A program made the translations under genes and the position numbers. Positions 3,594 through 52,534 of a stretch of 64,000 nucleotides of DNA are shown here, one piece after another (positions within the stretch are counted from its first letter, which is position 1; every line of letters starts with the position of its first letter). Below the pieces are notes generated by a model. That model had not been told where the DNA came from and ran no database searches. It saw only the letters and a program-made list of their open reading frames with translations. The stretch is taken from contig OX597826.1 in the NCBI GenBank assembly GCA_951406725.2, forward strand, positions 77,438,001-77,502,000, read 5' to 3'. The stretch is from Octopus vulgaris (taxonomy: Eukaryota).

Positions 3594-4575
3594 TAATGTG
3601 TAAACTAATGTCAGGTGCTTTGGCTGATGGTCTGTACAGATACTTGGAAAAAAGTGGGCTGCTACCCATTGAACAGAAAGGGTGCCGAAAAAGGAGCCGG
3701 GGAATGAAGTATCAGCTCTTAATTGGTAATCTAATTATCAGGAACTGCAAGAGAAGACATACAAACGTGAGCATGGAATGGGTTGACTATCGCAAAACAT
3801 ACGATATGAAACCACACTCCTGGATAATAAGAACAATGCGGCGAATAAAGAAAGATATTGGCTTCTTCAAAGCTGAATGCCAGAAACATAATTTTGGCAA
3901 TAAACTCACGCGCAGTCGCAGTAGTTCGGTATGGCTCTGGATTCCTGAAGTGGACAGAAGAGGAGCTAAAGGAGATAGACAGGAAGTCAAGAAATCTCCT
4001 AACGATGCATGGAGCCCATCATCCACGCGCAGACACTGATCGCCTATACATGAAGAGAGCAAATGGAGGAAGGGGACTGATAAGTGTGAAAGACTGCATG
4101 CGTATTGAACTCGAGAGCTTAATGAGATGATATCAAGCCCAAAGTAAGGAAACCGTGCAAGTGCCATTGAGGAACGAGGGAGTATTGAGAGCAGAGGAAA
4201 AAGGGAATACAAAGGAAGAATTACAAAAAGGACATCAAGAAGAATAACGCAACAGGGGACTACAGAAGTTGCTGAAAAAATAGATGGGATTGGCTGATGA
4301 AAGGAACCTTAAAAAAAGAGACCGAGAGCAGTATACTGGCAGTGCAAGCTTTGGCCACGAACTGAAGGGTCCGCCTTAAGAATGAGCAAATGGTTCTGCT
4401 GCGTTGCATCTACAATGGGGTGGATGAAACCATTGCCCATACCACGAATGAATGCTCTACACTTGCTCAAAATAATTACATGTTGTGGTGACGTAATCAG
4501 GTAGCGAAAGTGTTACATTGGAAATTACGAAAAGTGGGGGCTAGGGAGAGGTAAGACGTGGTATGAGCACAAACC
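3594..4575 (+). mobile_element. R4/Dong-clade non-LTR retrotransposon relic (RT plus zinc-finger region, internally deleted)
   Basis: LPIEQKGCRKRSRG..QLLI..IIRNCKRRHTNVSMEWVDYRKTYD..PHSWI; AINSRAVAVVRY..HHPRADTDRLYMKRANGGRGL; DETIAHTTNECSTLAQ..VAKVLHWKL; starts right after (AAT)n. Confidence 0.9.
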
Positions 4576-4885
4576 GTAGTAATTTCGGAGAAGGGTTTAG
4601 TCGATTACATCGATCCCAGTGTTCAACTGGTACTTATTTATATCAACTCTGAAATGATGAAAAGCAAAGGCGACCCCGACGGAATTTGAACTCATCGTAT
4701 AAAGCTAGAAGAAGAAGAAGGAGAAGAAGAAAAGAAGAAGAGTCAGGTGTCTACAGACCAGGAAAAAGACGTGTTGCGCCTGACTTACAATGTCCGTCCA
4801 AGCTTATAACAACGCTACTGCAATTCCATCTCTTATTTACATTATTTACATTTGACGGATATTTGTCCTCATCTTATTTGTTGTT

Positions 4886-4931
4886 AACACAACGTTTCGG
4901 CTGATATACCCTCCAGCCTTCATCAGGTGTC
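4886..4931 (-). ncRNA. Minimal type-I hammerhead ribozyme motif
   Basis: GACAC-CTGATGA-A-GGCTG-GAGGGTATAT-CAGCC-GAAA-CGT-T-GTGTT on the reverse strand. Confidence 0.8.
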
Positions 4932-5003
4932 TTGGGGAAATTTCGAACCTGGGTTCTCATTCCTAAGGTATTTTTCGATGCCATTATTATTATTATTATT
5001 ATT

Positions 5004-5352
5004 CAGTAGTTTTATTTTTATTTTTATAGCGTGCTTTCACTTCACTACCGAGCGCAGCTCTGTGTGCCTTGGGTATGTGCTGTGATTTGTTGTGATGCTC
5101 TGATGGTTATTGTATGGAAAGTGTTCTGCGTAGGATATGTGCAGTGCCTAGTAGTGCAATTTTCTGTATGTTATATGTGTTTGTAAGTCCTGGTGTTTTT
5201 GTTATGTATTTGTCTGAATATTTTTTTATCATGCCTAATGCACCTACTATGATAGGAATTGTTTCTGTTTTCAGATTCCACATTCTAGTTACCTCTATTT
5301 CCAGGTCTTTGTATTTTGAGAGTTTCTCCATTTCTTTTTTTTTCTCCATTTC

Positions 5353-5358
<6 letters not shown>
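5004..5358 (-). mobile_element. 5'-truncated R4/Dong element (restriction-like endonuclease C-terminus plus 3' UTR)
   Basis: EKLSKYKDLEIEVTRMWNLKTETIPIIVGALG...IQKIALLGTAHILRRTLS; (AAT)n on both sides; 18-bp tandem duplication at its 5' junction (5323-5358). Confidence 0.9.
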
Positions 5359-5415
<57 letters not shown>

Positions 5416-5492
5416 CTCATTGCCCGGAATCGAACTCGGAATCTTGGGGCTAGTAGCTCGCACTCTTAACCATTACACCATATGCCCACGAC

Positions 5493-5562
5493 CATAAGGT
5501 GTAGTGGTTAAGAGCGCGGGCTACTAACCCCAAGATTCCGAGTTCGATTCCAGGTAGTGTTC

Positions 5563-5615
<53 letters not shown>

Positions 5616-5813
5616 CAACAACAACAACAACAAAATCGAAAAATACCTTAGGAATGAGAACCCAGGTTCGAAACTTTTCCAAGACACCTGATGAAGGCTG
5701 GAGAGTATATCAGCCGAAACGTTGTGTTAACAACAAACAAGATGACAAATATCCGTCAAATGTAAATAATGTAAATAATGTACATAATTCCTCATCTCTT
5801 AAATATAGAACTG
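5493..5813 (+). mobile_element. tRNA-headed hammerhead-bearing SINE with complete 3' end
   Basis: A-box-like GGTGTAGTGG, anticodon-like arm GGG-CTACTAA-CCC, B-box GAGTTCGATTCC, (AAT)n(AAC)n linker, hammerhead, 3' end ..AAATATAGAACTG; TSD AATTCC(A/G)TCTCT at 4822-4833 and 5814-5825 encloses the pair. Confidence 0.9.
5683..5728 (+). ncRNA. Minimal type-I hammerhead ribozyme motif
   Basis: Stem I GACAC/GTGTT, core CTGATGA 5688-5694, stem II GGCTG/CAGCC, GAAA 5716-5719, palindromic stem III ACGT, predicted cleavage after GTT (5723). Confidence 0.8.
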
Positions 5814-5934
5814 AATTCCGTCTCTGGTTTAAGGACTCAAGGAAGGAATACCGGAAGAAAGGAAAGGAGGAAGGAAGGATGCGTGAGTGTGCACATATAT
5901 ATGTATATTTGCATGTGTGCATATATAACAAAGT

Positions 5935-6269
5935 AAAATCCCCCTTTGGTCACGAATGAGCATGGAATTGCACCTAGAAAGTTCCTTTCCGGGGCACAAA
6001 TCCGAGCAAGGTTGTTTATGGAAGATCAGCATTCGCCCATGCATACCAGGATCCTCTTTTCACGCTACCGAGGTTATCAAAAGGAAAGGCAAAGAGGCCT
6101 ATAACAGCTTGGCACCAGTGATGCGGCAACTCACTTCTGCAGCTGCATGAATTGGAGCAACGCGAAATAAAGTGTCTTGCTCAAGAGCACAACACACAAC
6201 CCGGTCCGGGAATCGAGCGCGCAAACTTCACGACTGTAATCCCGACGCTCTTATCACTGAGTCACACGC

Positions 6270-6270
<1 letters not shown>
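5935..6270 (-). mobile_element. tRNA-derived SINE with Meta-like central domain
   Basis: Reverse strand TCGATTCCCGGACCGG..TTGTGCTCTTGAGCAAGACACTTTATTTCGCGTTGCTCCA; homologous to 20075-20397. Confidence 0.8.
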
Positions 6271-6311
<41 letters not shown>

Positions 6312-6909
6312 TGTGTATGTATATATTTGTGTGGCCGGGTATAGATATGTGTGTGCGGATGTGTATACATACATATATATACACACATGCATGTGTACAC
6401 ACATATACATCATTACTAGGGCCACACTAACCTCCTAATTATTCCCATCACCACCACCACCACCACCATCATTATGACTGCTTGCGCCACCATTAATTCA
6501 ACCATAAACATTGCCCCTATCACATCATCACTAGCTTCCATACCACCCGGTGCCCCTCCTTCAGTGCAATCTCTATCACCACTAACCCCATACCCTTACG
6601 CTCCATCAACCCTCACCCAACCCTCGTCACAACTACCACCATGATGTCATCCCCACCCCACCATCAATACCACCCTCGCTATTTTTTCCAACACCACCAC
6701 TCCTGTCGGAAAGGTAAATCCCCTTCAGATGTGTCACGTGCTGTAATCATTCACCTGTGACAGAAGCCAACCAACCAAAGGCCAACAGAAGCAGCATTAT
6801 TGGTCTTTGACTGCAGGTGGGGCTCTTGTTTAACAGGGTGCCCACCCGGATTTTTACAAAACAACTACACTAATTAAATATTTTGTGATGAGTGTTGAGT
6901 GTGCGTAGA

Positions 6910-7080
6910 ATATGAGTTTGTGTGTGTGTGTGTGTATATTTGTGCGTGTATGTTTGTGCGCGAATATGCGTGCGTGCGCGGGCATATGTATACCGGGTTT
7001 TGTCGGATATATTTGTCACTGTGGGTCTATGTATATGTTTATGTGTGGGTTTATATGTTTATATATATATAAGTATAAAC

Positions 7081-12230: not shown

Positions 12231-12495
12231 TGATGTAGTAATGGGTTTAAATACAATTTGGTCTCATACAAATATATTTACATGGAGTACAAAAAAAAAA
12301 GTGCACAACAAAAGTACAGAATAAGCAAATATGTTTCAGAAAGCTCGGAGTTGCGTAAAAACTATAATAAGCATAAATTGCAGATGGAATAAGCAGAAGA
12401 GTCATGAGTATGTAACTGATAACCAATCGCATGGAGATACTACAGTAAGTCCGGCTTCTTTCATTAAGAGAAGATTGGCAAATACGGTTCATATA

Positions 12496-12838
12496 TATTT
12501 CTTTATTGCCCACAAGGAGCTAAACACAGAGAGGACAAACAAGGACAGACAAACGGATTAAGTCGATTATACCAACCCCAGTGCGTAACTGGTACTTAAT
12601 CTATCGACCCCGAAAGGATGAAAGGCAAAGTTGACCTCGGCGGAATTTGAACTCAGAACGTAGTCTGCCGCTACGTTGTGAGTTCAAATTCCGCCGAGGT
12701 CGACTTTGCCTTTCATCCTTTCGGGGTCAATTAAGCAAGTACCAGTTACGCACTGGGGTCGATATAATCGACTTAATCCATTTGTCTGTCCTTGTTTGTC
12801 CTCTCTGTGTTTAGCTCCTTGTGGGCAATAAAGAAATA
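12496..12838. mobile_element. Inverted dimer of two 5'-truncated Nin-domain SINEs (~168-bp arms, 7-nt spacer)
   Basis: 12496-12663 (-) is the near reverse complement of 12671-12838 (+). Confidence 0.9.
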
Positions 12839-12905
12839 GGTATTTCATCCGACCACTTTCTGAGTTCTAATCTCAACTATAGCAGCCGTACATTTTATTG
12901 TTTTC

Positions 12906-19025: not shown

Positions 19026-19053
19026 ATGAAAGTCAGCATAAGAGATTGTGAGT

Positions 19054-19462
19054 GGCGAGCTGGCAGAATCGTTTGCACGCCGGGCGAAATGCTTAGCGGT
19101 ATTTCGTCTGAGGTTACGTTCTGAGTTCAAATTCCGCCGAGGCCGACTTTGCCTTTCATCCTTTCGGGGTCGATAAATTAAGTACCAGTTACGCACTGGG
19201 GTCGATGTAATCGACTTAATACCTATGTCTGTCCTTGTTTGTCCCCTCTGTGCTTAGTCCCTTGTGGGCAATAAAGAAATACGATTGTCTGAGGTTACGT
19301 CCTGAGTTCAAGTTCAGCCGAGGTCGACTTTGCGTTTCATCCTTTCGGGGTCGATAAATTAAGTACCAGTTACGCACTGGGGTCGATGTAATCGACTTAA
19401 TACCTATGTCTGTCCTTGTTCGTCCACTCTATGTTTAGTCCCTTGTGGGCAATAAAGAAATA
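19054..19462 (+). mobile_element. Tandem direct dimer of Nin-domain SINE (full copy plus 5'-truncated copy)
   Basis: 19054-19281 and 19287-19462; direct repeat GATTGTGAGTGG at 19044-19055 and 19464-19475. Confidence 0.9.
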
Positions 19463-19475
19463 CGATTGTGAGTGG

Positions 19476-22470: not shown

Positions 22471-23802
22471 TATATTCTTCAAGAAAAAACACAAACGAAA
22501 AACAAAATAAAAAGGCTGATACAACTTGAGTTAAGTATTTTTCTCTCCTGCTTTTATTTCACTTGTTATTTGTTGCGGTTTTTGTTTCCTCCACGACAGC
22601 AGGCATATGAGCGACGACCGTCGCAATATCGATCAATCGATTATCACTTTGGCTCTATTAAATCTTTTTCACTGATTTACACCACCGCCGCCGCCACCAC
22701 CACCACCATCCTCGTCGTCGATTATTCTCTTTTCTTCTCCCCTTCCCCTACTTAACTTTGTTTTCTCTCTCCCACCCCCACCCCGCTTCTTTCTTTGTCT
22801 TTACCTTCTCTATTTCTTCCTTTTCTTCTCTCTCTTTCTCTCCCTCTTTCTTTTCTGCTCTTCTTATTACGATAAATTCTTTTCACAGCCATTTTGTTGT
22901 ATAGACCAAGCTCTAAACAGCTGTAAACCTGCTACAACGAGTAATCATTAATTCCACACATACAAACACACAAATTAGAATCGAATATATACAAATGCAT
23001 ATATATATATACATACACACACACACACACTTGTTTTTCTATCATAGCTTGCTGAGATGACTTGGTGAGTTTTTGTAATTGTTTCTCAACCATAAAGCAA
23101 TATTATTATTATTATCATTATTATTATTATTATTATTATTATTACATATTACTTATTTTTGATAACAAAAATTGAACAATAATGTAGAACAACAGTATTG
23201 TCTTCGAGTTTTGAGTGCTGTGGTCAGGACACAATTATAAGTTTTTTTGTTTTGTGAGAGAGGTTTTTTCCGTCGGGCTGGGAGAGAGTTGGCTTATATT
23301 TTCATTAGTATCATTTTTTTCCCCTTTTTACTGTTTGTTTTGTATATTTTCTTTTGTATTTTTCCTTTTTAAAATCACACATCCTAAATACCCTGATTCG
23401 TATATCTAAATACATATGAATTATAGATCTAAATTGAATGAATTCTGCATCTAGAAGCACTAATGAATTATACAGCATTGTACGGTGAATGAATGACAAT
23501 TGTCTGTATTATGAATTGCCTGCAACTTGATGTGGTTATTGCACCTGATGAGCTTGCAACGCGACGAAACACCACGTGTTTTTTTTATCTAAAATTGGGG
23601 TCAGCGACAGATGGACTGCAACCAACAAGTGAACCAATGAGGTGCTCCCTAAAGGGCTCTCAACGGTCCTTTAAAGAAACTCAAATTTAATGCATCTGTA
23701 TATTATTGATAAGACGGTCTCTTTCGGGTAGATTTTTAGGCTCGGTTTGTTTAATTTTAGCTTAGATAAACATAGCCAGTGGGGCGGGGGATTGAAATAA
23801 TA

Positions 23803-51635: not shown

Positions 51636-51779
51636 CACTCACACTTATATATATATATATTCATATACACTCATACAATCAGCATTGTTTTCCATGCTAG
51701 TATATGAGTGAGAACAGACAAAATTCATTGAACCAGATTTCTTACGGCTGGATATTCCACCACTTACCATTCTTCAATT

Positions 51780-52131
51780 CAGTTCTGTATTTAAGAGATG
51801 AGGAATTATGTACATTATTTACATTTGACTGATATTTGTTCCTCATCTTGTTTGTTAACACAATGTTTTGGCTGATATACCCTCCAGCCTTCCTCAGGTG
51901 TCTTGGGGTAATTTCGAATCTGGGTTCTCATTCCTAAGGTATTTTTCGATGTTGTTATTATTATTATTATTCAGGTCACTGCTTGAAATCGAACTCGGAA
52001 TCTTGGGGTTAGTAGCCTGCGCTCTTAACCCCTATGCCATATGCCCATGGTTATATCAGCCAAAATGTTGTGTTAACAACAAACAAGATGAGGAAAAATA
52101 TCCACCAAATGTAAATAATGTAAATAATGTA
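51780..52131. mobile_element. Second inverted pair of the hammerhead-bearing SINE (full copy 51780-52046 on -, partial inverted copy 52052-52131 on +)
   Basis: Perfect 12-bp TSD CATTCTTCAATT at 51768-51779 and 52132-52143; hammerhead disrupted by CpG transitions. Confidence 0.9.
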
Positions 52132-52534
52132 CATTCTTCAATTGTTTCCAAACTGAGTAACACTTTACAATCACAGGACATATTTTCAGGGAAGATCGAA
52201 AATTAATTATACCACTTCAATCACATAATGCTAAGGCAAAGAGGCACAAACGAATAGATGCACACACACACATACATACACACAGACAGACAGAGGCATA
52301 TACAGAGGTAGGCATTAGGAAGGGCATCCAGCTGTAGAAACCATGCCAAAGCTGACACTGGGACACAGTGAAACCCTCGGACCCATTGGATTCTACCGAA
52401 GCATCCTTTCCGTGCCAATATGAAATGTGGATGTTAAATGATGTATGTAAGGAGCTATTGAAAAGGCAATGAAAATGTGGTGCTCAAGCATGGCCACAAC
52501 TCTTTAGGCTGAAACACGTGACAGAACAAAGGAA

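Follow-up and report, generated by a model that had tools for sequence, protein, structure and literature searches.

A minimal hammerhead motif at the ORF start of an Octopus vulgaris Penelope-like element, in a pLTR whose tRNA-like head is a likely Pol III promoter

The reading that we consider probable for a minimal hammerhead motif in the genome of Octopus vulgaris is that it lies in the pLTR and the first codons of a Penelope/Poseidon-type retrotransposon, that the tRNA-like head of this pLTR is a likely Pol III promoter which sets the 5' end of the RNA, and that the locus represents one inverted insertion. The window, i.e., the whole stretch of DNA that was analyzed, comprises 64,000 nt (positions 77,438,001 to 77,502,000 of contig OX597826.1, assembly GCA_951406725.2). 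The first-pass annotation had described the repeat as a SINE with a hammerhead tail and had assigned its two motifs to two partner elements; the supposed SINE is instead the pLTR of a protein-coding Penelope-like element (PLE), the ORF start of which is overlapped by the hammerhead, and the two motifs lie in the arms of one insertion, whose 3' ends differ in length (one long, one short) and which is flanked by a 12-nt target duplication. The features, in window coordinates, are as follows.

4822-4833, no strand: target-site duplication of 12 nt, left copy, differing from 5814-5825 at one position
4834-4979, minus strand: left (inverted) arm, pLTR tail with short 3' end (tail position 147)
4886-4931, minus strand: twin minimal hammerhead of the inverted arm, differing from the plus-strand motif by one letter, in loop II
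4985-5352, minus strand: 3' end of another retrotransposon, inside the (AAT)n of the left arm
5353-5412, minus strand: (AAT)n tract of the left arm
5413-5487, minus strand: left-arm head, tRNA-like, with A box at 5480-5469 and B box at 5437-5426
5488-5489, no strand: head-to-head junction, where the 5' edge of the head is the start of both arms
5490-5564, plus strand: right-arm head, tRNA-like, with A box at 5497-5508 (mutated at its first T) and B box at 5540-5551
5565-5634, plus strand: (AAT)n/(AAC)n tract of the right arm, which would be a leader before the ORF start
5635-5813, plus strand: pLTR tail of the right arm, with long 3' end
5654-5813, plus strand: start of the Penelope-like ORF (~53 codons), with 5654 as the first in-frame ATG
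5675-5678, plus strand: copy-specific TTTT, a possible Pol III terminator (C at 5677-5678 in most family copies)
5683-5728, plus strand: minimal type I hammerhead of Penelope type, predicted cut 5723/5724, in codon 24
5683-5687 and 5724-5728, plus strand: hammerhead stem I, GACAC with GUGUU
5688-5694, plus strand: hammerhead core CUGAUGA, followed by one extra A at 5695
5696-5700 and 5711-5715, plus strand: hammerhead stem II, GGCUG with CAGCC, including G10.1-C11.1
5716-5719, plus strand: hammerhead core GAAA
5719-5722, plus strand: hammerhead stem III, a loop-less palindrome ACGU, with triplet GUU
5721-5734, plus strand: competing hairpin in which, by prediction, the cut site of the monomer is hidden (pair probability 0.96-0.98, against 0.001 for stem I)
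5772-5782, plus strand: zone of short 3' ends, putative second RT start, from which the ~35 nt to 5813 form the Penelope "tail"
5814-5825, no strand: right copy of the target-site duplication

The left arm was interrupted later, within its (AAT)n tract, by the 3' end of another element. We take this 3' end (4985-5352, minus strand) and a stretch at about 3600-4560 on the plus strand to be fragments of R4/Dong-like non-LTR retrotransposons, on the basis of a C-terminal motif; neither gave a Pfam match. The same R4/Dong-like 3' end precedes (AAT)n at another locus (L020), so the pLTR microsatellite is a repeated landing site. R4/Dong-like fragments like those of the window are present at loci L009 and L020, and a different inserted 3' end, common to L012 and L022, was seen at the pLTR microsatellite. 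The plus-strand copy in the window is probably a dead template for Pol III, because its A box is without the first T and a new TTTT is present at 5675-5678. A third and more worn insertion of the same pLTR family, again an inverted pair, lies at 51776-52134 of the window, while 12491-12843 and 19052-19471 hold another very common SINE-like family in close inverted pairs, which in the first case are 7 nt apart.

Inspection of the letters and a strict hammerhead descriptor agree that the full catalytic core, stems I and II, and the loop-less ACGU are present in both copies, and that these are on opposite strands (5683-5728, plus; 4886-4931, minus), just as the first-pass annotation had stated. 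Two matches to the descriptor occur in the window, whereas 300 local doublet shuffles gave none. All diagnostics of the PLE-type minimal hammerhead are present, namely the core letters, the nucleotide after A9, the G10.1-C11.1 pair, the palindromic stem III, and stems I and II. Searches of Rfam produced no match at gathering score anywhere in the window, and neither a hammerhead nor a tRNA family at E of 10 or below within 4800-5900. The motif is of the kind reported to need a dimer (PMC4209133), which upholds that part of the earlier description, and a lone ribozyme is predicted by folding to be inactive. Worn hammerhead-like cores at window positions 23545, 29396, and 31018 (plus strand) and 40171 (minus strand) failed the strict stem test. 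Another short repeat, found at L039, L069, and L107, carries a GUU minimal hammerhead with a different stem II.

The order of the parent unit is ORF start (with the hammerhead), reverse transcriptase (RT), endonuclease, stop codon, 35 nt, head, (AAT)n, and ORF start again. In some copies the ORF's C-terminus is found immediately upstream of the head, with the stop codon 35 nt before it. Among 30 loci picked by the endonuclease region the tail lies downstream in 26 and the head in 22, the eight loci without a head match each showing, by eye, a different deletion or insertion; among loci picked by the ORF N-terminus the sense tail is continuous with the ORF in 19 of 30. The frame from the ATG at 5654 is open through real copies, and joining the majority sequence of 77 arms (coverage of at least 18) to the tail majority of 30 loci yields a single RT-endonuclease ORF of 838 aa. 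RVT_1 scored above its cut-off, and Pfam GIY-YIG stayed below its own on this family; we take the C-terminal region to be the endonuclease from a GIY-YIG-type motif. The search for homologues returned 103, nearly all with RT and PF26215. None of the scored copies has an intact ORF, the longest open frames being of 569-694 aa. The N-terminus of one full-length homologue, P0006 (53% identical in the RT region), is 47% identical to the ORF start of the window over 45 aa, and P0006 keeps both peptides encoded by the ribozyme core and stems while its loop II peptide differs; since it begins with the same two ribozyme-encoded peptides, both the reading frame and the ribozyme are old. The closest homologues are P0001-P0004, with up to 77% identity over the tree alignment, and an insect protein (P0092) gave a short 63% match.

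The family thus characterized has what is found in EN+ PLEs, i.e., a single RT-endonuclease ORF (the endonuclease by motif), direct or inverted pLTRs with a 30-40-nt tail, and a hammerhead in the pLTR; the pLTRs of EN+ PLEs are defined as direct or inverted with a tail of 30-40 nt at one end (PMC8557442). Penelope/Poseidon is the likely clade, judging from the absence of the Zn-finger-like Cys linker between RT and endonuclease, which is present in the Neptune-type ORF of the same genome (L121), and from the position of the RT far from L121 and L128 in a quick, unfinished tree without a named Poseidon sequence. Neptune-type PLEs were considered as the partner and rejected, as 30 GIY-YIG loci share nothing with the tail and their hammerhead-like motifs have a U3-A8 core. 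Loci L097, L102, L121, and their kin constitute a young Neptune-type PLE family with many intact ORFs of 781 aa and a U3-A8 hammerhead variant that has a UGU-type cut region, near the 3' end. A second Poseidon-type family was sought in the genome as a control, and all 11 matches examined turned out to be the Penelope-like family of the window hammerhead.

The repeat unit itself is composed of the tRNA-like head, (AAT)n, and a 185-nt tail, which was present in 27 of 30 loci picked by the head (window included). The pLTR family was found in 21 of 128 arbitrary 10-kb stretches, which over the 2.8 Gb of the genome in 227 contigs corresponds to a rough estimate of 46,000 insertions; in only one of these 21 loci did the copy include more of the ORF than the final ~20 nt. 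Most copies stand alone or form inverted pairs, and they are not arranged in the head-to-tail tandem units by which non-LTR retrozymes are recognized. As the copies differ by about 6% from the majority sequence, the family is old. Arms that start at the head (n = 32) and arms linked to the ORF (n = 34) have variants in common, with a divergence of 6.5% vs. 5.8%. An independent SINE lineage was rejected because of these common variants and the matching age; no diagnostic variants were seen, and the head belongs to the coding element.

The head, which its A and B boxes mark as tRNA-like, occupies the 5' end, as a tRNA-derived head does in a SINE, which bears out the Pol III-type head that had been noted at first. 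ARAGORN identified no tRNA in the window. When compared with nine tRNA types of the genome (29 tRNA loci scanned, with no Ile tRNA among them), the head matched two Arg tRNAs best, with scores of 63 and 60 and the next at 57. Among arms reaching the head, in sets that were not chosen by the ORF, 54 of 65 start between -9 and +8 of its first base, against an estimated share of about 5% from the background truncation rate, and the other 11 run on past the head edge (6 by script, 5 by eye). Of the three ORF-bearing copies in which the upstream repeat reaches the head, two start at its edge. Mismatches amount to 7.2% in the A box and 6.5% in the rest of the head, with only the B box lower, at 3.4%. 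A 5-bp palindrome is located at the edge of the head and might by itself cause inverted junctions to cluster there; about 20 arms with a start at -2 to +5 are without its upstream half. In 79 metagenome loci with related ORFs, many on contigs too short for the purpose, no A/B-box pair was present within 900 nt after the ORF match, and one locus had a tRNA-like match upstream. RNA-seq covered the tail at equal depth in both directions, a pattern in which Pol III RNA and passive read-through are not separable. In RNA runs X22-X24, A>G and T>C changes within window positions 5628-5830 (e.g., 5644, 5689, 5712) were commoner than in the contig run X16; this excess fits A-to-I editing of inverted pairs and may reflect it, strain differences being an alternative.

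The 3' ends of the copies fall into two groups about 35 nt apart, both downstream of the ribozyme: of 166 arms, 62 terminate within tail positions 140-159 and a further 81 within 180-186, a number inflated by about 19 copies of the pLTR-ORF junction. A long end is combined with a short one in 47 of 59 candidate inverted pairs, and a target duplication of 9 nt or more flanks 39 of these 47 (one of them, situated in a TA repeat, carries little information), as compared with none of six long/long pairs, one of six short/short pairs, and 4% of shuffled flank pairs. RNA structure at the putative RT starts was not significant (z -0.1 and -1.1). In Anolis Poseidon the tail has been attributed to RT starting internally at two sites and to extension of both DNA strands (PMC11167929), and inverted 5' copies with the tail signature have been described for PLEs (PMC8557442). 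The RT of the octopus element would likewise start internally at two sites, and the combination of one long end, one short end, and one target duplication supports the two-start model of Penelope insertion with large-scale data from the genome. Under this model, the RNA's 3' end would be irrelevant, because RT initiation is internal. Pol III would begin transcription at the head and, as no terminator stands in its way, might continue past (AAT)n, the ribozyme, the ORF, and the second repeat as far as the flank; an internal RT start at the first pLTR-ORF junction would then copy ~330 nt back to the 5' end of the RNA and give rise to the SINE-like majority. It is likely that Pol III makes these short templates, and perhaps also the RNA of the whole element.

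It should be mentioned in this respect that the 2,640-nt unit contains no TTTT in the sense strand, an absence to which three synonymous-codon models assign probabilities of 0.032, 0.016, and 0.0013. Nor does it contain GGGG, of which 3.4 runs would be expected. In 79 related ORFs, however, TTTT is enriched (567 vs. 394 expected) and GGGG depleted (94 vs. 155 expected); because the relatives are rich in TTTT and poor in GGGG, it is the missing TTTT that is the unusual absence. The 34 relatives matched for T content have 2.36 TTTT per kb, which predicts 6.2 runs for the unit (P 0.002), and only one of them is free of TTTT, vs. nine of 19 long, decayed copies of the Penelope-like family. The two Neptune ORFs of the genome have nine and eight runs. 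A relative without a tRNA head (L334) also has a TTTT-free ORF stretch. In the A-rich family ORF, TTC is favored over TTT 14:6 for Phe and is used at all three Phe codons where TTT would create TTTT, a number too small to weigh alone. Taken as a sign of adaptation to Pol III, the absence of TTTT is suggestive and not proof.

As for the ribozyme, the genomic ends of the copies count against ribozyme-cut RNA as their template. None of 214 arms ends at the predicted cut, and internal 5' starts near it (six of 73, with 3.8 expected) are not enriched, so that cleaved RNA was rejected as the template and the uncleaved RNA would be the one copied. RNA-seq ends showed no pile-up at the cut in three runs (~6% of each was used, and 5,286-6,936 reads were placed per run), which is a weak test because the libraries are fragmented and the reads come from many copies. 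None of this supports the copy-number-dependent switch that had been suggested. The expectation that the core would be better conserved than its flanks held to some extent, with 35 mismatches vs. 53.8 expected from base-matched flanks, but the core also codes for protein and the copies are not independent. Within the motif only two common non-CpG variants occur, at N7 and in loop II; an intact core is found in only 49 of 105 spanning arms. Cleavage, if any, would take place in a cis dimer or with the help of protein, and a cut in codon 24 would remove the AUG, so the ribozyme is likely to serve in shutting down translation or in processing multimers and not in setting where a copy ends. Translational switching, or the processing of a pLTR-ORF-pLTR RNA with two ribozymes, would be its likeliest role. 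The trans partner that had been thought necessary for cleavage need not be invoked, because such an RNA carries two hammerheads in the same sense. The ribozyme of Anolis Poseidon is reported to cut only with protein, and its hammerhead mutants to insert normally (PMC11167929). A fuller scenario, which we put forward tentatively and at somewhat less than even chances, would combine a captured tRNA promoter, the loss of every sense TTTT over 2.64 kb, a full-length and perhaps translated uncapped Pol III RNA with an (AAT)n leader, an internal RT initiation that does away with the need for a defined 3' end, tens of thousands of SINE-like pLTR copies as by-products, and a codon-24 hammerhead as a protein-assisted off-switch of translation.

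Several of these observations could be read differently. The tRNA-like segment might be an old insertion that sits passively in the 3' UTR of a Penelope element transcribed by Pol II, with the short copies as 5' truncations piling up at the palindrome through RT stalling or annealing of cDNA ends. This would account for the location of the palindrome exactly at the pile-up of 5' ends, for the occurrence of both AC and GT centers, and for the lack of special conservation of the A-box letters, and it draws on the absence of GGGG runs alongside TTTT and on the TTTT-free stretch of L334. We nevertheless regard it as quite improbable: the ~20 arms lacking the upstream half of the palindrome start at the head all the same, an RT stalled by the stem would halt at its 3' foot rather than in or before the loop, and the related ORFs, enriched in TTTT and depleted in GGGG, mark the missing TTTT as the unusual one. 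Alternatively, the short copies might be a self-propagating SINE, in which solo Pol III transcripts of head and tail are mobilized again by the Penelope protein acting in trans. Solo copies retain the promoter boxes as well as the two 3' end sites, and they far outnumber those with the ORF, given that in a single sampled locus of 21 the copy reached into the ORF past its last ~20 nt; on the other hand, no separate lineage is seen, variants and age being those of the ORF-linked arms, and in Anolis the Poseidon RNA is described as having to reach ORF +172, past the start mapped at +111 to +118 (PMC11167929). Because the solo copies end at the RT start sites, they may lack a required part of the RNA. 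We think self-propagation unlikely, and it is compatible with a Pol III head in a coding PLE, so that both can be true.

The mechanism originally suggested, that abundant short RNAs pair in trans via ACGU and restrict their own spread by removing the 3' ~90 nt through cleavage, now seems very improbable, even though the palindromic stem III exists, the monomer is predicted to be inactive, and trans cleavage has been reported for SINE-like elements of schistosomes (PMC6765202). The absence of fossil ends at the cut is compatible with it, because cleaved RNA would leave no copies. Against it stand the ACGU duplex, worth only -1.7 kcal/mol, and the minimum free energy structure of the dimer, which is predicted not to be a hammerhead. 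PLE minimal hammerheads are reported to cleave poorly even as tandem dimers (PMC4209133), and that of Anolis to need protein (PMC11167929). The loss of an intact core from more than half of the spanning arms and, as a weak test, the lack of RNA ends at the cut point the same way. The preferred reading is still that of a Penelope/Poseidon-type pLTR with a likely Pol III promoter in its head.

The hammerhead, the tail, and the inverted arms are known features of PLEs, and what we have not found described is a tRNA-type head in a coding PLE. The element resembles Poseidon of Anolis carolinensis as described in PMC11167929, in which the hammerhead lies over the ORF start and the cut falls among the first codons, a tail of 30-40 nt results from two internal RT starts, no read ends lie at the cut, and a single ORF encodes RT and a C-terminal endonuclease. 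It differs in that its pLTR has a tRNA-like head with A and B boxes and (AAT)n, in that most of its copies start at the head and its sense strand has no TTTT, and in that the ATG is 29 nt before stem I and not within stem II (PMC11167929). With the metazoan PLE minimal hammerheads it shares the missing helix III, the palindromic 15.2-16.2, the extra nucleotide between 9 and 10.1, G10.1-C11.1, and a 5-bp helix I, whereas its helix II has 5-6 bp vs. 7-8 bp in the schistosome families, and a Pol III-type head is not part of those hammerheads as they are described there (PMC4209133). Opposite-strand hammerhead pairs 100-700 bp apart were already noted in metazoan PLEs in the same source (PMC4209133). 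The schistosome repeats Sm-alpha and Sj-alpha are also of high copy number, with a Pol III-type promoter followed by a hammerhead; they are non-coding, often in tandem, and with cleavage shown, unlike the dispersed, often inverted pLTR of a coding element seen here (PMC6765202). The metazoan non-LTR retrozymes are likewise short non-coding hammerhead repeats derived from PLE pLTRs, but form head-to-tail tandems, and a tRNA head is not mentioned in their description so far as it was available (bioRxiv 10.64898/2026.07.22.740005).

The search, which covered papers and not the repeat and SINE catalogues, returned none that describes a coding PLE with an internal tRNA promoter, nor was one seen in the part of the octopus repeat annotation that was accessible (PMC13282606); the short form may already bear a SINE name, and the family may be catalogued. 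The octopus repeat OR2 is listed as a CORE SINE (PMC4758252). A tRNA-like A/B-box head is fixed inside the pLTR of this coding element, which would be new. Tens of thousands of copies that could be annotated as tRNA SINEs are Penelope ends, and an internal RT start on RNA beginning at the promoter would offer a route to SINE-like repeats without a fusion step. Pol III promoters have been taken as a mark of short non-coding parasites, coding retrotransposons being held to need Pol II, and the autonomous partners of TRIMp3 elements are argued to need it too (PMC10886601). These TRIMp3 elements (Cassandra, Helenus, and Ajax) are a parallel in having a Pol III promoter derived from a small RNA in a terminal repeat, although they are non-coding LTR elements of at most 1.3 kb (PMC10886601). 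In the octopus family it is the coding element that carries a promoter-like segment, and a 2.6-kb coding unit would have become adapted to Pol III, provided that the lack of TTTT reflects selection.
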